Positions 1 to 17,929 of a stretch of 19,124 bases of DNA are shown piece by piece. Positions within the stretch are counted from its first letter, which is position 1. Every line of letters begins with the position of its first letter. The position numbers and the translations under genes were made by a program. The stretch is from IMG/VR virus record IMGVR_UViG_2695420427_000009. The stretch is one strand, 5' to 3'. This stretch comes from a virus. Taxonomy: Duplodnaviria > Heunggongvirae > Uroviricota > Caudoviricetes. The notes under the pieces were generated by a model, which had not been told where the DNA came from, searched no databases, and was given only the letters and a program-made list of their open reading frames with translations.

Positions 1-105
1 TCCGTTATTGTGTTCTGTTAGTTTGTGCCTAAGTTAACGCGTTATTAGTTATCTTATTCTCAAATTGTGTTACGATAATCCGAGCGGATAATCAGGAGAG
101 GAAAG

Positions 106-2001
106 ATGAGCAAAGTAAAAATCGGTGAATTAATAAACTCACTTGTTAGCGATGTTGAGTCAATAGATAACTCTGACCGTCCTCAAGGGGAGAAAACAAA
201 AAAAATAAAGGCTGTTGCATTAAAATTTAAAAATGCATTATTTAATGACAAGCGAAAGTTTAGGGGGAAAGGATTAGAAAAAAGAATTACAGCCAACACA
301 TTCAATGCCTATATGAGCAGGGCCAGAAAACGGTTTGATGATAAACTTCATCATAGCTTTGAAAAAAATATACATCGCCTATCTGAAAAGTATCCTTTAT
401 ATAATGAGGAGCTATTGTCATGGCTTTCTCTACCTGCTGCCGATATTCGCCAGAGAATGTCAGCTTTACAGGCAAAATTAAAATTAATTCTCCCTCTATC
501 AGAAGATTTATCTAATATCAGAATTGGCGATAACAAAAGTCATAATAAGTTATTGAAATTATCAAATAAATATAAAGAGTGGCAATTCGCCATTTCTGAT
601 TTAACTAGCGATAACTGGAAAGATAAGCGCGATTATTTATATAAATTACTACAGCAAGGATCTGCCTTACTTGAGGAGTTGAATCAGCTAAAAGTTAACC
701 ATGAGATTCTCTATCATCTTCAACTAAGCCCTGCCGAACGTGCATCTATCCAGCAACGATGGGCGGACGTTCTGCACAATAAGAAACGTAACGTGGTGGT
801 CATTGATTACCCTAAATATATGCAAGCTATTTACGATATTATAAATAGCCCTGCTACATTAAATAATCTAAACACTCGTTCAGGTATGGCTCCTTTGGCA
901 TTTGCACTTGCTGCATTGTCAGGAAGACGAATGATTGAGATTATGTATCAAGGTACATTTACTGTTTCTGGTAAGTATACCGTTGATTTTTTAGGCCAAG
1001 CTAAAAAAAGAACTTCTGATGATATAACCAGAAAAATATATACATTATGCGAAGCAAAAACATTTGTTTATTTAATAAATGTACTTCGCTCATGCCCAGC
1101 AGCATCTGATTTTGATGATGTCGTTAAAGGTTATGGAGATAACGACACACGCTCTGAAAACGGACGTATTAATGCCATATTAGCAAAGGCTTTTAACCCG
1201 TGGGTTAAATCATTTTTCAAAGATGACCGCCGTGTTTATAAAGATAGTCGTGCTATTTATGCCCGTATTGCGTATGAAATGTTTTTCCGCGTAGATCCTC
1301 GTTGGAAAAACGTAGATGAAGATGTTTTCTTTATGGAAATTTTAGGCCATGACGATGAAAACACTCAATTACACTATAAGCAATTCAAGCTGGCCAACTT
1401 CTCAAAGACATGGAGGCCAAATACTGGAAACGAAAATACCAGGCTGGAAGCATTGCAGCAGCTTGATGACGAAATGCCTGGATTCGCCAGAGGAGATGCC
1501 GGGGTTCGTCTGCATAACACAGTTAAGCAGCTGGTAGAGCAGGACCCCTCTATAAAAATCACGAACAGCACTCTAAGAGCGTTCAAATTTAGCCCAACAA
1601 TGATTAGTCGATACCTGGAATTTGCTGCTGATGCTCTGGGGCAATTTGTTGGCGAAAACGGACAATGGCAACTGAAAATAGATACTCCAGAAATCGTTAT
1701 GCCTGACGAAGAAGAACTGGAAGCAATACCTGAACTGGCGGATGAATTATCAGAGGATGACGATCTGGATGACGACGAAATTGAGATAGAGGAAGAGGAA
1801 GAGGAAGATAGCGTAGAAGAACAGCAACCGCCTGCACCTTCTTCGCCTGTATCTAAGCCGGTATTTAAGCCGGTGAGAAATATTGGTGATGGCTCATACG
1901 TTGTTGAGTTTCATTATAATGGCCAGAATTATGCGTGGTCCGGCAGTGCAAACAGCCCCATGTCAGCAATGCAGTTAGCATGGCTGACATATTTCGGTTA
2001 A
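106..2001 (+). CDS. telN: Protelomerase (telomere resolvase) TelN, 631 aa
   Basis: Long ORF preceded by RBS caggagagg; length and sequence strongly resemble N15 TelN as I recall it; acidic DE-rich C-terminal region typical of this family. Confidence 0.9.
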   Translation: MSKVKIGELINSLVSDVESIDNSDRPQGEKTKKIKAVALKFKNALFNDKRKFRGKGLEKRITANTFNAYMSRARKRFDDKLHHSFEKNIHRLSEKYPLYNEELLSWLSLPAADIRQRMSALQAKLKLILPLSEDLSNIRIGDNKSHNKLLKLSNKYKEWQFAISDLTSDNWKDKRDYLYKLLQQGSALLEELNQLKVNHEILYHLQLSPAERASIQQRWADVLHNKKRNVVVIDYPKYMQAIYDIINSPATLNNLNTRSGMAPLAFALAALSGRRMIEIMYQGTFTVSGKYTVDFLGQAKKRTSDDITRKIYTLCEAKTFVYLINVLRSCPAASDFDDVVKGYGDNDTRSENGRINAILAKAFNPWVKSFFKDDRRVYKDSRAIYARIAYEMFFRVDPRWKNVDEDVFFMEILGHDDENTQLHYKQFKLANFSKTWRPNTGNENTRLEALQQLDDEMPGFARGDAGVRLHNTVKQLVEQDPSIKITNSTLRAFKFSPTMISRYLEFAADALGQFVGENGQWQLKIDTPEIVMPDEEELEAIPELADELSEDDDLDDDEIEIEEEEEEDSVEEQQPPAPSSPVSKPVFKPVRNIGDGSYVVEFHYNGQNYAWSGSANSPMSAMQLAWLTYFG

Positions 2002-2012
2002 AGCATACAGTA

Positions 2013-2036
2013 AAGGCACCGAATTAACGGTGCCTT
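2013..2036. terminator. Hairpin between convergent telN and ant operon (AAGGCACCG-aattaa-CGGTGCCTT), probable bidirectional terminator
   Basis: Perfect 9-bp stem with 6-nt loop, 12 nt after the telN stop, followed by a U/G-rich tract gttgtgtg; sits between convergent genes. Confidence 0.4.
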
Positions 2037-2172
2037 GTTGTGTGACCTACCTCGCCTGCCCCCTGCAAAGGGCAGAAGTAACGGAGGAAACGCGGCTGCA
2101 ACCACAGACATCACCGCCCCGACTGCGAGGCTTCCCTTCTCTAAGAAGGGCATAAATTCGGGCTGGTCAACC

Positions 2173-2955
2173 CTATTTATTGGTGATTTCTGCTGGCTTT
2201 AGCTGCGCGGATAACTGCTCAAGTTTTTGAACTGCCAGTTCAAAATGCGCGGGTAACGCCTTTTCCAGATCAGAGTTAATATCGGTGATGGGTAAATCAC
2301 CACACGACATACTCCGCCTACCCCCACGAACAACATCACGCAACAACTCTCGTTCATACGTGCGCATGTTCCCCAATGCCGACTCAGCAGCCGTCAAAAT
2401 CCGGCGCAGTTCTGCCGTAATTGCTGGCAAATCATCAACCGTTATGGGGTTCGGGGATGGATTACGACACGCCCGACGCAAAGCTAACCATACACCGCTA
2501 ATCCAGGCATTTCGGTACTGAAAACTTTGTGCTATATCGTTAATCAGCCCTCGCAGATACTCTTTCTGCCTCCAGTTCAACGGCTCCGCTGCTCGCATTG
2601 GCTCAGGCTCGATGTAAACGTACTCTCCATTTTTGCGAATAGAGGGCAAGACTTCGTTCGTTACCCATTTGCGAAACCGCCAAGCTGTTGTGCCTTGCTT
2701 CACCGCGTCACGGCAGCGGAGGATCAGGGTGTATAGACCTGACTCTGAAATAATATTTAGCTTTTGCTCTCCGCCAGGGGTGTAACTTAAAGTTACACCC
2801 TTTTCATCCTCATCCAGAGACATTAGCGCCTTCCGGGAATTAACGAGTCTTAAAGCATCACATACATCCTTAGCCACAAACCACGGCTCACCGTTAATCA
2901 TCACTACACGAACCTGATGCTCTTCCTGAAAGGAAAAGACTGCTAACGCGCTCAT
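2173..2955 (-). CDS. BRO-N domain protein, antirepressor-like (260 aa)
   Basis: N-terminus FSFQEEHQVRVVMINGEPWFVAKDVCDALRL...EKGV...GGEQKLNIISESGLYTLIL...WVTNEVLPSIRKNG is a typical BRO-N / P22 Ant N-terminal-like domain; start overlaps the stop of the upstream ORF (operon). Confidence 0.75.
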   Translation of the reverse strand: MSALAVFSFQEEHQVRVVMINGEPWFVAKDVCDALRLVNSRKALMSLDEDEKGVTLSYTPGGEQKLNIISESGLYTLILRCRDAVKQGTTAWRFRKWVTNEVLPSIRKNGEYVYIEPEPMRAAEPLNWRQKEYLRGLINDIAQSFQYRNAWISGVWLALRRACRNPSPNPITVDDLPAITAELRRILTAAESALGNMRTYERELLRDVVRGGRRSMSCGDLPITDINSDLEKALPAHFELAVQKLEQLSAQLKPAEITNK

Positions 2956-3185
2956 TCAGCCTCCTTATCGCGCAGCAAGTGCGACGAGAGAGACGCAGAA
3001 TATCCCTGTGCTTCATGCGTTAACTCACACGCAATCTGCAGAAGTTTTCCAGCCTCTGAGAGGTAAATCGACGCCTCACAACTGGAGACTGTCCGATGGG
3101 CTGATGATACGAGCGCATAGACCTGAGCCAGACGTTCATCCAACGATTCCAGCAGGCCAACAGTGTTCATTTTTACCTGATTCAT
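2952..3185 (-). CDS. Hypothetical protein, 77 aa, middle gene of ant operon
   Basis: ORF translationally coupled at both ends (its ATG overlaps the stop of the Icd-like ORF; its stop overlaps the start of the BRO-N ORF); no recognisable motif. Confidence 0.5.
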   Translation of the reverse strand: MNQVKMNTVGLLESLDERLAQVYALVSSAHRTVSSCEASIYLSEAGKLLQIACELTHEAQGYSASLSSHLLRDKEAE

Positions 3186-3346
3186 GCAGCCACCTCGCGC
3201 ACCGGAATACGGGCAGACAATACCAGGACAAACCGGCTGGCGAACTGGCGACGAGCTTCCCGTTCAGATGACGCGATAGTGGAAAGATGATGAATGTGGG
3301 ACTTTTTGTCTGTGCGAACGACTGCCGCAAATTTGAATTTGAACAT
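3182..3346 (-). CDS. Icd-like small protein (54 aa), candidate cell-division inhibitor
   Basis: Hand-translated ORF MFKFKFAAVVRTDKKSHIHHLSTIASSEREARRQFASRFVLVLSARIPVREVAA, below the ORF-track length cutoff; GGAG RBS 9 nt upstream; stop overlaps ATG of next gene (ATGA); the F.F.AV.R...EREARR...F.L...AR.PV pattern matches my recollection of P1 Icd-like proteins. Confidence 0.5.
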   Translation of the reverse strand: MFKFKFAAVVRTDKKSHIHHLSTIASSEREARRQFASRFVLVLSARIPVREVAA

Positions 3347-3512
3347 GGTATGCACTCCGTTTTATTGGTCGTGCTACCACCAGAGTTGCGAATCTCTTTA
3401 TTGGTGGTAGCCCAGGCGGGGTTCGCAATACCGGTAAACGAAGAAACCGGCCCGACCGAAGTCAGCCCCACCTGAGCCACCATAATTCGGATATGCGCAG
3501 GTCTATACACAC

Positions 3513-3589
3513 AAAAAAACACGCTGGCGCGTGTTGTGCGCTTCGTTTTGCCAGGATTGCGAAGTCCCGACTGCGGGATTTACCGCAGC
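3513..3589 (-). ncRNA. Candidate c4/CA-like small regulatory RNA upstream of the Icd-like / antirepressor operon (~77 nt)
   Basis: Minus strand: promoter-like TTGACG-N18-TAAAGT, then a short transcript with three hairpins (CTGCGG-uaaauc-CCGCAG; CUUCG with a 14-nt loop; CACGC-gcca-GCGTG) ending in a U7 run, a canonical intrinsic terminator; loop sequence UUCGCAAU is complementary to AUUGCGAA in the downstream mRNA leader. Boundaries approximate. Confidence 0.4.
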
Positions 3590-3595
3590 GAGGTG

Positions 3596-3625
3596 ACTTT
3601 ACCTCCAAAACGACGCACACGTCAA
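3596..3625 (-). promoter_or_regulatory. Putative sigma70 promoter of the small RNA / ant operon (-35 TTGACG, -10 TAAAGT, 18-bp spacer)
   Basis: Read by eye on the minus strand; hexamer matches 5/6 and 4/6. Confidence 0.3.
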
Positions 3626-3645
3626 TAATTTGCAAAGACATTTTA

Positions 3646-3665
3646 CCCCGTGACCAGTCACGGGG
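3646..3665. repeat. Perfect 20-bp palindrome CCCCGTGAC-ca-GTCACGGGG (copy 1 of palindrome family B)
   Basis: 9-bp perfect arms, 2-bp centre; lies between the lipoprotein gene stop and the ant-operon promoter; core GTGAC-NN-GTCAC recurs at 8917 and 14851. Confidence 0.6.
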
Positions 3666-3726
3666 ACAGGTGTTTTTATAGTTTGCTTGAACAAACGATC
3701 AGAACATGAACAATGTTATTGTTCCG

Positions 3727-4539
3727 TTATAAGAAAGCCTCACGCGAACGGAACACCCACTCTAGCTGTACTGGATAAATTTCTCCCGTTTTAATATTTA
3801 TTAGGCGCGCGGCTAATAACTCACCCATAAAAACCTGAGTTTTATGGCTCATATCTGACGGGTTAAAAATAGTAGGTGATGTTATATCAATATGATTACT
3901 GCTTAACCCATTTATCTTTGCTAAATATTCAATTCTAAGGTCTTTTACATTAACATCTTTTGGTATTTGTCCTTTTATATCAATATCTGCCCATATTGTT
4001 TCAGGGTTCCCTTCATTTATTTGTGTACTACCAAAGATAATTTCGGCACCTAAAGTATTTAACACTTCTACATCAGCAGATATTCCAAAAGCATTAGCAC
4101 CAACATAGCTTCCATGCTTTGTTATTTCAGAGGAATCGACATGAAAACCATACCATCCAGACATATCTCGAGATGTTATCACGCTATCACTACCGCTATT
4201 CTCAACAAAATCACGGTTAAGATATGTTCCTGAGTATGTGATACTTCTAGGGATAGACAAACCTTGAGATGTTAAAACGTTGTTGTATGGCGCGTATGTT
4301 AATGAGTGAACGACATATCCACGCCATGAACCATCATCTATCTTTGATGCAATAATTCTATTAAATTCCTTACCTGTGAGTATTTTGCTGCTAAAATCAC
4401 CAACAGAGTTGATAGGTACTCTTTTTTCTTTTTCGAATTTATACTCAACGTCCGTTGATGCCTTATTATCATATTGATAAGTGCATCCAGATAATAACAA
4501 GATAGAGAGTAATAAAGCTGTTGTTTTTTTGTTACGCAT
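3727..4539 (-). CDS. Lipoprotein of unknown function (270 aa), AT-rich moron
   Basis: N-terminus MRNKKTTALLLSILLLSGC is a signal peptide with lipobox LSGC; mature part is Ser/Thr/Gly/Tyr-rich; the gene is visibly more AT-rich than its flanks. Confidence 0.8.
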   Translation of the reverse strand: MRNKKTTALLLSILLLSGCTYQYDNKASTDVEYKFEKEKRVPINSVGDFSSKILTGKEFNRIIASKIDDGSWRGYVVHSLTYAPYNNVLTSQGLSIPRSITYSGTYLNRDFVENSGSDSVITSRDMSGWYGFHVDSSEITKHGSYVGANAFGISADVEVLNTLGAEIIFGSTQINEGNPETIWADIDIKGQIPKDVNVKDLRIEYLAKINGLSSNHIDITSPTIFNPSDMSHKTQVFMGELLAARLINIKTGEIYPVQLEWVFRSREAFL

Positions 4540-4628
4540 AATATTAACTTAACCTATTTGATTAATAATATGTTATTCCATTAAATAAAATATGCCGAGA
4601 ACGGTTTAACTTGAACAGTCATCACTAT

Positions 4629-5024
4629 TCAATCAACTTTTTTAGCATCAGCCATACGCTTCAACCAGTAATCAACAATCGGCTGCTCATCCACAGAATG
4701 TTTACCAGGTATAACTCGCCAGCTATCTTGCGAAAATCTGCCGTACTTACGCGGGAATAGGCCTTTCTTTATCTCCCGCCATGTACTAGGAAAACCATCC
4801 ACAAAAGTACCAATTAACAGGAGAGGGACAAAAATCAGAGCTACAAACCATCGTGCAAGAAAGTGTTCAACAACAACATTTTCACCGTTGTAGTAATACG
4901 CATACGCATCCAATATGCGAATTTTCCTTACCTTAAAAATAGCCTTATGTTGAGAACGACTTAACTTGATACGAATGTATCCCTTATCCAAAGGGGATTC
5001 GTATTTGTATGATTGAACAGCCAT
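4629..5024 (-). CDS. Hypothetical membrane protein (131 aa from ATG at 5024; ORF track extends to a GTG at 5036)
   Basis: One predicted TM helix (WFVALIFVPLLLIGTFV); GGGG RBS-like motif upstream of the ATG; follows the 108-aa ORF on the same strand with a 2-nt gap. Confidence 0.6.
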   Translation of the reverse strand: MAVQSYKYESPLDKGYIRIKLSRSQHKAIFKVRKIRILDAYAYYYNGENVVVEHFLARWFVALIFVPLLLIGTFVDGFPSTWREIKKGLFPRKYGRFSQDSWRVIPGKHSVDEQPIVDYWLKRMADAKKVD

Positions 5025-5026
5025 TT

Positions 5027-5353
5027 TTAACCCCACTCACCATCAGCAAACAAAGCGTTATACTCTGACAATGGTAGACGGTTGCCCTCGATGTAGAGAT
5101 TCAGTTCATACTTCGTCTCCGGGTTTTCCTTGTCGGCTCGTTCCCAACGCTCAGCAGCCTCACGCGCCAATAATTCCACTGCTTTCAGATAATCCTCCGT
5201 ACGGAACCAGCCAAAGATAAGGCCACGATCTGTTACAGCCCAGGCAAACTTTTTTTCTTCCTCCTGGATAGCCTTAATGCGTCGATCGCATTCATCCCGG
5301 CAAAACTGCAGCTGACGGTAATCAAGTTTGTCCAAAAATGCAGTAGTAGACAT
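5027..5353 (-). CDS. Hypothetical protein, 108 aa
   Basis: ORF with GGGGAG RBS 7 nt upstream of the ATG; same strand as and downstream of repA. Confidence 0.65.
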   Translation of the reverse strand: MSTTAFLDKLDYRQLQFCRDECDRRIKAIQEEEKKFAWAVTDRGLIFGWFRTEDYLKAVELLAREAAERWERADKENPETKYELNLYIEGNRLPLSEYNALFADGEWG

Positions 5354-5549: not shown

Positions 5550-8500
5550 AGAAAGCGCCCTGCTCTTCGTAGCTGCATGGGCTATTCCCGGTAATGTATT
5601 CACGTAACCGCCGCAGTTCATTGCTGGATAAGTGATCCATGAACTCTGTGAGGTACAGAGATGCAAACGTCATAGCTATGCTAGCTGATGACCATGATGA
5701 CATAGTGGCCAGCTCCTCACCGGAAAGCGCACTCATCGCCCAGGACTCAGGTACAACCACTGGCAACACAGCCAAAGCCTCAGAAATTACTGAATGAGGG
5801 GCGTTTTGAACCTGCTCGTTTGTGGATCGCGTTTTATCATCCATATATATATTGAGATCCAAATCGCGATCCATTTCGATGGCGGTCTTCTCGGCTTTAC
5901 GCGTTTTCAGGGTTAGGCCATCTTTCTGACGCTGAGCAAGAATATCCAGCATAAATGCCGCTGATTCAGGCTCAACAAAACGCAAGGTTGGACGCTTATC
6001 GCCGTCTCTGCCGCGACGTTTACCTGTTTTAAGGCCAAGAGAGTCGCAAATGTTTTTAAACAACGCTTCCGGCACTTTAGGCTTCCCTTTTGGCGTCATA
6101 AAACCACCAATGTGCAGAACGTTATTCAACAGGTCACGGCGTTCGGCTGTCATGAGGTTATCTCGAGCAAATTTGAGACGCTCCTGAGTCGCCTCGCCGG
6201 TCATAGTCTCAGGGTTGATACCGCAGTCGATAAAGTACTGCCGGAGAGTTGCTGATTTAAGCGCATAGAAACCGCGCGCCCCGACTTCAACAGTAGGAGT
6301 AGCTTTTACCTTGTGATCGATTATTCCAGGGAATTTAGTTTTAAAGACATCATCAGCCTGCTCGCGAGTCATCGCGGTCACTACAAAATATTGCCACTGT
6401 CCCGCCTGACGGTATGCGTAGGTAAAATTGATGGCTGCTTCTTCCCGGTCGTAACGACGAGCTGTTACCTCATCTAAAAGCATTGTTTCATAGCGGCGAA
6501 CTTTGTCTCGAGCACCATCGAAATAGAATTTCAGCGTGCCTTCTTCAACCGGTAGTTTCAGTTCGTTTTCAATATCCCAGCGGACAAGTTTTGCCTGTTC
6601 TTCAAGCGTCAGCGCGCGTTTTTTTAGCAGTTCTTCACGCTCTGATTCTTGTGGAGTTTCTGTATTGAGATGCAGATCCAGTGTCTGTTCCCACACAATA
6701 TCCCGCGCTTCTTTACGCAGCTCTTTACCGATATCATTCGCAGCATAATCGGTGGCCAGCGGCGATACCTTATAACCGTCGCTGTGCATGATGCAGATCA
6801 TGTTGCTGGCGTAGTCGTTACGCGCAGTCGCTTCAATAGCGGCTGCTTTAATTTTCATCCTGGTAAAGTCGGTATTGGCCACCCCCATTGATATACGGTC
6901 GCCATCGAAAACGACATCCGTCAGTTCACCGTTCATACCTGCGGTAGCAAGCAATGCCTGGGCGAATGCTCGTTCTATTTTTTGCGGGTCAGTTTCACGT
7001 TTTGCACGAGCTTTATCAAAGCCGATAATAAATTCTTTTGCTGTACGGTCGCGGCGTAGCATTTGCACTGCGTCGCTGGGTACAACTTCACCACAGAACA
7101 TGCCGAAATGACGGTCAAAATGTTTTTGCTCAATCGACACGCCGGATGAAATAGACGGGCTATAAATCAGGCCGTCGTATTTTTTGACCATCTTTTTCGG
7201 TTGATTGGTAAATGCTTCAACTTCTGGCTCTGGTTTGTTTTTCTGGTTTACACACAGAAATTTCTTACCAGGAAAATGCATTCTCAGGGTGGCGGTCACA
7301 TCTTCTGCAAAGGTGGAGCTGTCGGTGGCCAACATGATTTTTTCGCCATTCGATACAGCTTTCACCACCTCGGTCATAATGCGATCTTTTTCTGTATAAA
7401 AAACCCGGATTGGCTCACCTGTTTCGCGGTTGCGAACATCAACAGGTAATTCAATTACGTGGATCTGCAGCCATGCCGGTAAACCTAGTTCTTCACGGCG
7501 TTTCATAGCCAGTTCAGCCAGGTCAACCAGCAGATCGTTCGCATCAGCATCCACCATTATTGGGTGTTGTTCCGTTCTGGCCAGCGCGTCAATTAACGTA
7601 TTGAATACAGCCACCGGGTTTTCCATAGCCCGACCGGAAAGAACGGCACGTAGCCCTTGCGTGGCCTCGTCAAAGCCAAAATAGTCGTGCTGGCGCATCA
7701 ATGGTTGCCAGCAGTTTTTAACAATCGAGTTTATGCAGATGGTCAGTTTACTGGCGTATGGAGCCATTTCCTGATAGCCAGGGTCCTGATAGTGCAGGAT
7801 ATCGGCTTTTACACCTTTTCCTTCTGTCATCATTTCCCACAGGCCACCAATAAGGGAAACACGGTGAGCAACAGAGATACCACGTTCTGAGCTATGCATT
7901 AAAGGTCGTAACAATCCAGTAGATTTGCCGGAACCCATACCAGCACGAACGATGACTATCCCCTGTAGTGATTGCACATACTTCAGGACGTCATCGGTCA
8001 TTACCGAAGTTTCAAAACGCTTATAGGTGATATGTTGAGGACGTTTATTGGGATCAGTTATTCGTTCGCTGAATGAGCGCGGAGCCTGGGCAATACGGCA
8101 CTTTTTATTCAGGCGACGGGCAATGTGGTCTTTTACCGTAGCGCGATAGATATTTTCCAGCCCAATTTCACGCAGGGCGATGCAGAACATGTTAAATAAG
8201 TCTGACGGACTGTTAGGAACCGGACAGGTTAGCATGCCAATATCCACTGCTCTCAGCAGCTCTTTGGCAAAAGTACGACGGTTATCCCGCTTAATTGTCT
8301 TCAGGCGGTTGAGCGTCAGAGATAGCAAATCAGTGCCAGTTTTCAGGCGGTTTGCAGTTGCAAACAGTTGACGTGCTGTTTCACGAAGTCCACGTAGTTT
8401 GTGCAGGTCGTTGAAGTCACTGCACTCCATTTGCGGATCGTCTTCAAAAGTTGGATAGACGCAGCGGACATCGTTGAATTTCGATAAGATTTCATAGCCA

Positions 8501-13736: not shown

Positions 13737-14512
13737 TGATCACGTTTACCGACAAAGAACTGATTAAAGAAATCAAAGAGCGAATCGGTAGCCTGGACGT
13801 TCGAGACAATATTGAGCGCCGTGCTTATGAAATTGCACTGGCATCGCTGGAAGCAGATCCAGTTGCTTATATTTTCAAACATCCAGCCGGAAAATTATTC
13901 TGGTCGTTGACCGATGAAAGCAATAAAGAACAACCGGACGTGATTTCTGTTTATGCTGCCTCACCTGCACCGATATCGTCGGAGGCCATTGAATACGCAA
14001 TTGAATACATCCGCAGTATCGCTTTTCACATCGATGAAGACGATTACCACGGCAAACATATTGCGTATTTCATGCGACAAGCATTGGCCTGGCTGGAAGG
14101 GCATTCATGCAGCGACGACAGGCTGGGTAAGGCCGACAATCAACCCGCATCTGGTAACCAGGCTGCCGAATCCAATCGCGGTAATGAGTGGACTGGCAAT
14201 CCTGATATTGATAACGCCATCATCATGCTCGATCGCATAGATACGCTGGAAAATTGCGATGATGACCGTATTGAGGCGGTTAAGGCTGTTTTGCGTAGAC
14301 TGGCTGGCAACTATCCGGTAATTCCGGATGGTTGGATAAGCTGTAGTGAGCAAATGCCAGATGATGGTCGTATTCAGTTTTCTGTTTCACTTCCAGCAGC
14401 ATGTGGTGGAGATAAATATTTTATTGATGGTGTATTTCAACCTTTGAGATATGAGCGTGACTGTGAAAAAGCGGTTGTGGCCGCTGGCGGTGTAGTTAAT
14501 TGGGTTAAGTAA
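13736..14512 (+). CDS. Phage protein with DUF551-like C-terminal domain (258 aa)
   Basis: Start moved to the ATG overlapping the upstream stop (ATGA); the ORF-track start at 13697 would overlap the previous gene by 40 nt. Confidence 0.55.
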   Translation: MITFTDKELIKEIKERIGSLDVRDNIERRAYEIALASLEADPVAYIFKHPAGKLFWSLTDESNKEQPDVISVYAASPAPISSEAIEYAIEYIRSIAFHIDEDDYHGKHIAYFMRQALAWLEGHSCSDDRLGKADNQPASGNQAAESNRGNEWTGNPDIDNAIIMLDRIDTLENCDDDRIEAVKAVLRRLAGNYPVIPDGWISCSEQMPDDGRIQFSVSLPAACGGDKYFIDGVFQPLRYERDCEKAVVAAGGVVNWVK

Positions 14513-14527
14513 TTTTTAGGAGGATTT

Positions 14528-14854
14528 ATGGCGCTGACACCGGCAGAACGGCAAAGAAGACGCAGGGAACGGTTGAAGAAGGAAGGAACATCAAGACGTG
14601 ACTGGATTCTGGAACCTGACGAGTTACGTATGTTGGGGGAAATTTGTGTATTGCGTAGACCAGGGCGAGTTCCATATTCAGAGAACGAAGTCATCGGACT
14701 GCTGATCAGGAAAAACTATAAGGAGTTGCAGAAACAGCTATCTACTACTTGTCCGCGATGTGGTCAAAAAATGCCTGTTTCAGAATGCATTTTTGATGGT
14801 GAAGGCTCATGCCACCTTACAACCACGAGGCTGAAACTTGCGCTCAAAGTGTGA
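14528..14854 (+). CDS. Hypothetical basic protein with C-terminal Cys cluster (108 aa)
   Basis: Strong RBS TAGGAGGA 5 nt upstream; Arg-rich N-terminus (RQRRRRERLKKEG) and CPRCG...C...C Zn-ribbon-like tail. Confidence 0.6.
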   Translation: MALTPAERQRRRRERLKKEGTSRRDWILEPDELRMLGEICVLRRPGRVPYSENEVIGLLIRKNYKELQKQLSTTCPRCGQKMPVSECIFDGEGSCHLTTTRLKLALKV

Positions 14855-15358: not shown

Positions 15359-15646
15359 TCAATAGACGGCATTAATATTAATCGTTGCACCGCATGCTTG
15401 GGCATATTTTGATAAAGTTTTCATGCTTGCCCCTAAAGGATTGCTTTCCAGGCGGCTGATAGCTGACGGGCGCAATCCCATTCGTTCAGCCAGAGCTGAC
15501 TTCGTTAAACCTGCTCTTTCCCTCATTTCGTATAACATTTCGACCATCTCCAGCTCTTTATCGGCCTCTTCATATCCTTTGATGGCTTCTGGAGTGTTGA
15601 GAAGTTTTTCTTTTACTTCGTTAAACGGGATGCCTTTCGCTTTCAT
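15359..15646 (-). CDS. HigA-like antitoxin, HTH_XRE family (95 aa)
   Basis: HTH LTKSALAERMGLRPSAISRLE; start overlaps toxin stop (TGATG); located downstream of toxin as in HigBA-type modules. Confidence 0.75.
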   Translation of the reverse strand: MKAKGIPFNEVKEKLLNTPEAIKGYEEADKELEMVEMLYEMRERAGLTKSALAERMGLRPSAISRLESNPLGASMKTLSKYAQACGATININAVY

Positions 15647-15957
15647 CAGTTCATCTCCTTCAGGCGAGTTCTGGCGATTTCGATAGCCTTCACCGGTGTT
15701 TTCTGTGTCTTTTTTACAAATGCATGCAATAGATAAATTTCGTTACCAGTCGCGTAGGCGTACAGCGTTCTTGCGATGTTTTTATCCCCTACTCGTAGTT
15801 CAAAAAGCCCTCCACCTATTACACGGCTATGGGGCATCTTCAGTTTGTTGCCTTCTTTCTCCAGTCGCTCAATTAATCTGGTCATGCGACCTCGCAAATC
15901 ATCTGGTAGTTCAAGCAGTTCATCCAGTGCTGCAGGGTGGGTTATCACGTTAAACAT
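15646..15957 (-). CDS. RelE/ParE-superfamily toxin, HigB-like / phage Gp49-like (103 aa)
   Basis: GGAGG RBS 8 nt upstream; sequence ...GGGLFELRVGDKNIARTLYAYATGNEIYLLHAFVKKTQKTP matches the Gp49-like toxin pattern; toxin-first gene order. Confidence 0.75.
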   Translation of the reverse strand: MFNVITHPAALDELLELPDDLRGRMTRLIERLEKEGNKLKMPHSRVIGGGLFELRVGDKNIARTLYAYATGNEIYLLHAFVKKTQKTPVKAIEIARTRLKEMN

Positions 15958-16803: not shown

Positions 16804-16817
16804 CGCGATGCGCATCG
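16804..16817. promoter_or_regulatory. Perfect 14-bp palindrome GCGATGCGCATCGC immediately upstream of the methyltransferase
   Basis: Seen directly; overlaps the alternative upstream ATG (16808) of the methyltransferase ORF. Confidence 0.4.
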
Positions 16818-16852
16818 CCGGGTTAGCTTACCCAGGCAAAAAAATAATAGCT

Positions 16853-17929
16853 ATGTTCAAAACCACTAATATTCATGGCGCACAACTCGTTTGCGCAGAT
16901 TCTCTGCAATTTATCAAAACCATCCCTGATAACTCGGTCAATTTGATTGCAACAGACCCACCATACTTCGGCGTAAAGGCTAACGCATGGGATAACCAGT
17001 GGGATAGCGATGCTGACTTTTTGGGGTGGATTGACGAATTTTTGGCAGAATTTTGGCGGATATTGGCCCCTAATGGCAGCCTGTATATGTTTACCGGCTC
17101 TCGCCTTGCGTCAAAAATTGAATTATTAACTCGCGACCGTTTCAATGTTCTGAACCATATCATTTGGGCTAAACCCAGTGGTATGTGGCGCGGTTGTCAT
17201 AAAGAAAGTTTAAGGGCTTATTTTCCTGCTACTGAAAGAATATTATTTGCAGAGCATTACGGCACGTCAGGTTATGCTAAAGGTCAGTCAGGTTATGCTT
17301 CAAAATGTGCAGATTTAAGAAAAAATATTTTTTCTCCACTAATTGATGCTTTTTCGCTGGCTCGCCGTCAGTTAGATATATCAGCCGCAGACATTAATTC
17401 AGCGACAGGAAAGCAGATGTGTTCACACTGGTTTTCTTATTCGCAGTGGCGGCTTCCATCATTAATTGATTTTAATAAACTATGCGAATTATTTCGCAGG
17501 AAGGCAGATTCACTCGGTGTCCCGTGTCCATATCCTTTTAATGTTGATTATTCAGAACATGAAAAGCGTTATAGCGATCTGAAATTGCATTATGAGGAAG
17601 AAAAGAAGCAGTATGATGATTTGAAGGCTCAGTATGAAAATTTACGCCGTCCATTTCATGTTACTGCTGATGTACCTTATACCGATGTATGGGAGTTTCC
17701 TCCTGTGCAATATTATCCTGGCAAGCACCCATGTGAAAAACCTGCAGCGATGATGGAACATATTATAAAGAGTAGTTCACGCCCCGGAGATATCGTTGCC
17801 GATTTCTTTATGGGATCAGGCTCAACTATTAAAGCTGCGCTGAAGTTAGGACGTCAGGCAATAGGTATTGAGATTGAGGGCGAACGTTATCTTCAGACAG
17901 TTGATGAAGTGAAAAAGTTATTTGAGTAA
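16853..17929 (+). CDS. Orphan DNA methyltransferase, beta-class (N6-adenine or N4-cytosine; motif IV DPPY before motif I FxGxG), 358 aa
   Basis: N-terminal DPPY and C-terminal FFMGSGST with an intervening target-recognition region; no restriction endonuclease partner visible; start could be the upstream ATG at 16808. Confidence 0.75.
   Translation: MFKTTNIHGAQLVCADSLQFIKTIPDNSVNLIATDPPYFGVKANAWDNQWDSDADFLGWIDEFLAEFWRILAPNGSLYMFTGSRLASKIELLTRDRFNVLNHIIWAKPSGMWRGCHKESLRAYFPATERILFAEHYGTSGYAKGQSGYASKCADLRKNIFSPLIDAFSLARRQLDISAADINSATGKQMCSHWFSYSQWRLPSLIDFNKLCELFRRKADSLGVPCPYPFNVDYSEHEKRYSDLKLHYEEEKKQYDDLKAQYENLRRPFHVTADVPYTDVWEFPPVQYYPGKHPCEKPAAMMEHIIKSSSRPGDIVADFFMGSGSTIKAALKLGRQAIGIEIEGERYLQTVDEVKKLFE

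Follow-up and report, generated by a model that had tools for sequence, protein, structure and literature searches.

The natural target of the N15 protelomerase TelN spans ~310 bp and comprises telO, the L3 and R3 boxes and, to either side, two or more degenerate copies, L1 and L2 on one and R1 and R2 on the other (PMC12624138). The degenerate copies have been proposed, without demonstration, to bind the C-terminal domain of TelN, a domain that is not essential for end protection (PMC12624138). The 56-bp telRL alone is enough for processing in N15 (PMC3540006), and P840, a relative of PY54, can do without its flanking inverted repeat in vivo (PMC10612081). The N15 tos fragment for pJAZZ (pJAZZ-OCmin) is defined by primer tosROC-2 and reaches GTGTTACGATATCCAGAGAC (PMC2847241), and with that end it includes the box called ‘+151’ below.

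The mechanism by which TelN cuts and reseals DNA is established in N15 and phiKO2, and for the replicon described here we infer it by homology. A TelN dimer would cut telO, together with L3 and R3, with a stagger and would reseal each strand on itself to leave the telL and telR hairpins; TelN would likewise resolve the duplicated ends after replication. The labels L1–L3 and R1–R3 are said to have been defined in the primary N15 and phiKO2 papers (those of Deneke in 2000 and 2002 and of Casjens in 2004). The boxes are named here by their distance from the dyad of the target, not as ‘R1’ or ‘R2’.

The window analysed, the whole stretch of 19,124 nucleotides, is identical to the complete draft contig CXDV01000080.1 (GCA_001260535.1, 19,124 bp) read in reverse complement. 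Since the window is the whole contig, position 1 is a contig end and the record has no upstream sequence. Both ends of the window are contig ends, and the far one cuts into a lysis gene of the Phage_lysis family. The first 105 bases had been assigned to the control region of telN, and the assignment is sound. The ORF at 106–2001 on the plus strand encodes a protelomerase (telomere resolvase) of 631 aa, with the Pfam domains TelK_N, TelK_muzzle, ResT-TelK_cat and TelK_stirrup at E values of 1e-50 to 5e-25. The protein has 77% identity with N15 TelN, retains the tyrosine active-site motif HYKQF intact, and matches the crystal structure of TelK (2V6E) at E 2e-295. Positions 1–105 are the region upstream of this gene and lie within the right arm of tos; no small ORFs overlapping them were found. 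A ribosome-binding site, GGAGAGG at 95–101 on the plus strand, can be read from the sequence 4 nt ahead of the telN ATG, and the alignment shows that an A.C.GG.G block at this site is kept between lineages. On the 3' side of telN the genes follow the N15 order: a Bro-N protein, an Icd-like gene, RepA (1331 aa), a CI-like (cB-like) repressor, Cro, Q and the lysis genes. Bases 1–105 thus very probably belong to the right arm of an N15-type tos, on the telL/telN side, and make up that part of its 191 bp which is nearest to the gene; the replicon, with the same high confidence, is an N15-like (Ravinvirus-type) linear phage-plasmid.

Two other features of the contig may be recorded. A two-gene module at 15359–15957 on the minus strand resembles a toxin–antitoxin pair on the plasmid arm; it consists of a Gp49-family ORF of 103 aa (RelE/ParE-like, and so annotated in the relative pEA8_3) and an HTH ORF of 95 aa, which meet at 15646. 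The longest perfect palindrome of the contig, the 18-bp AGAAAAAATATTTTTTCT at 17318–17335, lies within an N6/N4 DNA methyltransferase gene (16808–17929).

The initial annotation predicted the telomere palindrome just upstream of the window, and in all close relatives it is there, the dyad lying 86 bp and the end of the perfect palindrome 65 bp before position 1. Window position 1 thus corresponds to +87 from the dyad. The dyad core in near-identical relatives is TACGCGCGTA, 191 bp from the telN ATG, and the palindrome around it measures 42–54 bp. The ~56-bp perfect palindrome that had been expected proved too long: in pEA8_3 (locus L003, where window position 1 is L003 4001) the perfect palindrome is of 42 bp, with ACATAATTACCCATTATACGC and GCGTATAATGGGTAATTATGT as its two halves, at L003 3894–3935, and in contig L036 and in PhiR46_1 it is of ~54 bp with one mismatch. 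The contig thus lacks 86 bp of the arm, and in this stretch all close relatives have the telO half-palindrome, followed by R3 (ATTATGTGCTGAT) and, at +69, by the first of the accessory boxes. The R3 box (ATTRTGTGCTGAT) would occupy window coordinates -73 to -59, off the contig; in the arms of relatives it stands at +16 in 26 of 28. An upstream region devoid of a palindrome, or a circular replicon with an integrase, had been named as the outcomes that would speak against a telomere here. The relatives do have the palindrome, and no integrase is found among the annotations of the 47-kb relative pEA8_3.

A further prediction was that sopBA lies beyond telRL. It holds for the joined (phage or circular) form, for in the end-joined pEA8_3 sopA starts 545 bp upstream of position 1 with sopB further out. 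It would not hold for the plasmid-prophage, in which the DNA would end in the telL hairpin only 86 bp away.

Replicons that share an identical RepA and have nearly the same TelN differ in the telR (sop-side) half of the palindrome, of which there are two forms (L003 3894–3935; L036 and L037, reverse strand upstream of telN; L044 1440–1491). One form has a good L3 box (ATCAGCACATAATTTCCC), and the other a degenerate one (AACGAAACATAATTACCC) that leaves just the 42-bp perfect palindrome. In the degenerate form the telR–telR junction that arises after replication would have two poor outer boxes. An Rfam scan of the whole tos region returned only sub-threshold matches of microRNA models on the palindrome, which are spurious.

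Within the window itself, two copies of the 8-mer ATTGTGTT had been noted at 7–14 and 64–71 and likened to the flanking repeats of N15. Both copies are there on re-reading the sequence, and the collinear alignment with N15, together with 28 telO-anchored arms, identifies them as N15-type boxes. As a window coordinate equals the dyad position minus 86, they are the boxes at +94 and +151, whose TTRTGT falls at window 8–13 and 65–70. The ‘+94’ box (positions 1–15, plus strand, unit TCCGTTATTGTGTTC) is an outward-facing, degenerate copy of R3, and the contig starts within its unit. It aligns with CTGCTATTATGTTCT in N15, and its natural variants retain TTRTGT, as in ATTATGTT of L031, L027 and L014. 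The ‘+151’ box (positions 57–76, plus strand, unit TTCTCAAATTGTGTTACGAT) has a conserved position in telN-side arms. Its 13-mer ATTGTGTTACGAT (64–76) has 10 of 13 positions in common with the R3 box of N15, ATTGTGTGCTGAT, and the figure rises to 11 of 13 in phiKO2-type arms. It is the most conserved block from R3 to the ATG, with 9 of 13 positions invariant across lineages against 27% of those between boxes.

The manner in which the arms were collected matters for this comparison. Loci had earlier been retrieved from viral contigs by a pattern combining the +151 box with the telN start; in some loci this imposed conservation of TTGTGTTAYGAT, and with it the ‘+151’ box, so the retrieval was repeated with the 22-bp telO alone. 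The telO-anchored set comprises 28 unique telN-side and 29 sop-side arms. The gapped pattern of +151 box and telN start had no match in genome contigs. Of the 28 telN-side arms, all have an outward TTRTGT at +151 (or +150), 27 have one at +94, 26 at +16 and 21 at +69/70, and the inward copies number four, all at +35. In the 29 sop-side arms the copies also face outwards save for two exceptions, at positions that are more variable. Both arms of the window lineage, N15, phiKO2 and the L011 lineage carry several TTRTGT(T/G), all outward-facing when read from the dyad, and on the telN side the box starts common to the four are +16 (R3), +69/70, +94 and +151. Invariant positions across the window family, N15 and phiKO2 lineages make up 55–69% of the boxes against 27% of the inter-box sequence, and the distance from dyad to telN ATG is 189–192 bp in the 28 telO-anchored arms. 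An arm of fixed length (189–192 bp), with boxes at fixed places in diverged inter-box sequence and in four lineages, suggests a constraint of spacing on a nucleoprotein structure.

The only species-representative genome with the exact 22-bp telO is that of Pseudocitrobacter vendiensis (L063; NZ_CALSBS010000033.1, 46,169 bp). Its arm is of N15 type with ATTATGTTACGAT as the +151 box, and the host range of the group thus reaches Pseudocitrobacter.

Short repeats and palindromes are common enough in DNA of this composition for chance to be considered. A repeated 8-mer of any kind is found in 9% of shuffles of bases 1–105 and in 76 of 544 (14%) real 105-bp tiles of the contig, and a perfect 10-bp palindrome in 10% of shuffles and in 45 of 544 (8%) such tiles, so that neither feature is remarkable by composition alone. 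That both would be functionless chance features of AT-rich intergenic DNA is nevertheless extremely improbable, because the 19,124 bases, both strands included, contain no copies of ATTGTGTT besides these two, which lie within the first 71 bp, and because 27–28 of the 28 arms, from diverged lineages, agree in its position and orientation. The heptamer TTGTGTT is also enriched in tos: 6 of its 9 copies in the 47.4 kb of pEA8_3 sit in the 421-bp tos region. For the repeats, the enrichment in tos and the telO-anchored arms refute chance.

The 10-bp perfect palindrome TAACGCGTTA is a different matter. It is present at 35–44, as had been annotated, and the accompanying statement that the region lacks a long palindrome is also accurate, none above 10 bp being found in 1–105. 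The likening of TAACGCGTTA to an element of N15 does not survive, since the aligned place in N15, phiKO2 and L011 holds unrelated sequence with no match to it. The palindrome is invariant in the window lineage, where nearly everything else is too (96–100% identical), and perfect 10-bp palindromes number 17 in the contig. Its frequency at chance level and the unrelated aligned sequence in the other lineages led to its rejection as a meaningful element. It is best read as chance, a lineage-specific feature with no assigned function.

The boxes at +94 and +151 are probably accessory TelN sites. As such they would be additional sites of low affinity that load more TelN on the subtelomere, which would make resolution efficient in vivo or protect the end. 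A different reading makes the ATTGTGTT boxes promoter or architectural elements only, that is, look-alikes of -35 and -10 hexamers, bendable AT-rich DNA or sites for host nucleoid proteins, with the likeness to R3 incidental or the relic of a duplication. The resemblance is real enough: TTGTGT is like TTGACA, and TATTGT, TATTAT and TAYGAT are like TATAAT, and both candidate promoters described below are built of boxes. The sufficiency of the 56-bp telRL in N15, the dispensable flanking repeat of P840 and an end protection that does not need the C-terminal domain of TelN also fit this reading. However, boxes of the same outward polarity fill the sop-side arm as well, where a telN promoter is not needed; the +151 box matches R3 across 13 nt, more than a -10 hexamer requires; and the phiKO2-type boxes, TTGTGTTATGAT, are 11/13 identical to R3. 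A purely promoter-related or architectural role is therefore unlikely.

Expression of telN bears directly on the function of the boxes. In the prophage the DNA would end at the hairpin with nothing beyond, and the telN promoter would then have to sit within the 191-bp arm. A consensus scan for plus-strand sigma-70 sites upstream of telN found none, and a simple weight matrix gave two candidates, both conserved in position but weak and without a good -35. The upstream one is a predicted -10, TATTGT at 6–11 on the plus strand (+92), whose -35 would lie beyond the contig end, as the TTGTGT in the +69 box. This candidate is the top match of the scan in the window lineage, and the N15 lineage scores better there (TTGTGT-16-TGcTATTAT). 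The other is a predicted extended -10, TGtTACGAT (TGTTACGAT), at 68–76 on the plus strand, which overlaps the +151 box and would give a start near 83; the window family, N15, phiKO2 and L011 all have TGTTAYGAT at +154 to +162. No description of the telN promoter or its regulation was found in the open literature, and Dorokhov et al. reportedly made a study of telN expression, in Russian.

As both promoter candidates are built from boxes, occupancy by TelN could repress telN. Such feedback of occupancy on telN transcription is a tentative idea, drawn from the sequence of the arm. The fuller proposal, in which boxes loaded with TelN would make up a subtelomeric array that both caps the hairpin and holds down telN transcription, so that supply is coupled to occupancy, with a second regulator added at 74–93, is speculative to the same degree.

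The best sigma-70 match of the whole tos region lies elsewhere: TTGACT-18-CATAAT (10/12) at L003 3929–3958 on the minus strand, which is +15 to +44 and off the window. It points to the dyad and so reads into the hairpin or, in joined DNA, toward sopA. The count of such matches in the region is within chance expectation.

The 20 bp at 74–93, after the candidate -10 and ahead of the ribosome-binding site, form a quasi-palindrome, GATAATCCGAGCGGATAATC, whose 8-nt arms match at 7 of 8 positions around a 4-nt spacer. The element is open to a second reading, as a direct repeat of GATAATC, and the initial annotation had overlooked it. It may be the operator of a putative regulator. In L014 a symmetric double change, CCG..CGG to CAG..CTG, retains the symmetry, and L027 and L031 each have a single change that weakens it. 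A search of the rest of the contig for a second copy, as would be expected of a shared operator, found none, and the element is absent from N15, phiKO2 and L011. The 12-bp core has a chance expectation of 0.48 and is not significant alone, so the quasi-palindrome stays a lead.

The relatives bear on whether DNA of this contig ended in a hairpin or ran on into sop. Among the contigs with identical RepA, L036 and L037 continue across the palindrome into sopA and sopB, L038 stops exactly at the dyad, L041 and L043 stop 18 and 15 nt past it, and L042 stops 5 nt inside the window (+92). The record of PhiR46_1 is linear with its ends annotated as telL and telR, and window position 1 is its base 98. 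In YDC107_1, the IMG/VR contig L006 and several ‘complete’ plasmids of 61–92 kb, two inverted telN arms are separated by a gap of 172 nt (2 x 86). A fold-back of 172 nt is the pattern expected of reads that round a hairpin tip, and these assemblies, with the telL-starting records of relatives, point to a hairpin end.

The contig could instead stem from packaged or circularized phage DNA or from a circular derivative, and would then have an intact telRL and sopAB directly upstream and no hairpin. The deposited sequences of several relatives, L036 and L037 among them, are circular or joined and place sopA 545 bp upstream, and the 18 nt by which L041 extends beyond the dyad are telR-type sequence (TTTCCC, not TTACCC). 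The ‘circular’ records are no proof of topology, as short-read graphs can link telL to telR via the palindrome that they share. Moreover, the assembly of an isolate samples mostly prophage, the contig breaks in tos just as its siblings do at +92, at the dyad and 15–18 nt beyond it, and long-read relatives yield the fold-back dimers typical of hairpin ends. A circular or packaged origin is thus quite improbable, and a telL hairpin 86 bp from the first base is the preferred reading.

Plasmid records described as ‘complete’ are inconsistent on this point (RefSeq/PLSDB; e.g. NZ_LT906558.1, NZ_CP014491.1, NZ_CP019258.1 and CP088430.1). Some are of 45–48 kb, rotated or ‘circular’, some begin 36–82 bp ahead of the first base of the window, and those of 61–92 kb with two inverted telN arms are fold-back artefacts of hairpin ends. 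Another anomaly is found in L012 (IMG/VR, L011 lineage), where positions 14434–14570 at the contig end hold a perfect inverted duplication of 66 nt centred ~45 bp inside the arm, not at telO. The probable cause is an artefact of assembly, chimeric or by snap-back, an aberrant telomere being less likely. Breaks, fold-backs and false circles arise at the telomere site in assemblies of these replicons, draft or ‘complete’, which can mislead plasmid typing and estimates of size, and database sizes and topologies are unreliable for this group of phage-plasmids.

The initial annotation was largely right, and its prediction slightly over-specific. For annotation, the contig represents the telL arm of a linear phage-plasmid of N15 type, its first base lying 86 bp from the predicted hairpin tip. 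The fixed positions and polarity of the boxes across lineages add a modest comparative point on what the ~310-bp TelN target does beyond its 56-bp core, a question raised elsewhere (PMC12624138).

The same lineage is already represented by the Escherichia phage-plasmids PhiR46_1 (PV340565), YDC107_1 (CP025712) and, from E. albertii, pEA8_3 (NZ_CP117561), whose telN regions are 98–100% identical to that of the window; for pEA8_3 the identity is 100% throughout window positions 1–5200. These three provide the 86 bp that the contig lacks. Further along the arm the three are mosaic, 96–99.5% identical with indels past window position 8441. The close relatives also include many ‘plasmids’ of E. coli, E. 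fergusonii and Shigella, and the best match to the whole window in the phage, plasmid and E. coli collections is 98.4%.

PY54 and P840 are the more distant comparison, made by description (PMC3540006, PMC10612081). Their pal (telRL) is also a palindromic protelomerase target with the shared centre TACGCGCGTA and flanking repeats by the tel gene, but it is a 42-bp perfect palindrome with a single flanking inverted repeat of 10–15 bp, and the requirement for that repeat differs between PY54 and P840. The telRL of phiKO2, the target of TelK (AY374448; 2V6E), is closer. Its telO core and R3 box are the same as here, the dyad lies 190 bp from the ATG and boxes stand at +70, +94 and +151, with the DNA ~73% identical to the window over the telK start. 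It differs in having more boxes (also at +53, +86 and +132), in their form, TTGTGTTATGAT, and in a telRL annotated as 50 bp.

N15 (AF064539; telRL at 24775–24830, telN from 24995) is the reference for the arm as a whole. The distance from dyad to ATG is 192 bp, against 191 bp in the window lineage, and the alignment is almost gap-free; in BLAST, the match to N15 sets in at window position 53, at 71%. The two have in common the telO core CCATTATACGCGCGTATAATGG, R3 at +16, further boxes at +70, +94 and +151 and an identical block ATTGTGTTACGATA ahead of telN, and the TelN proteins share 77% identity. The differences are that R3 reads ATTATGTG in the window lineage rather than ATTGTGTG, that the inter-box sequence has diverged to the 27% invariant positions given above, that N15 has neither TAACGCGTTA nor the 74–93 quasi-palindrome, and that some members of the window lineage have a degenerate L3 box on the telR side and hence a perfect palindrome of 42 bp. 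These differences are minor, and positions 1–105 are an ordinary member of a system already described, in a lineage already present in the public databases.
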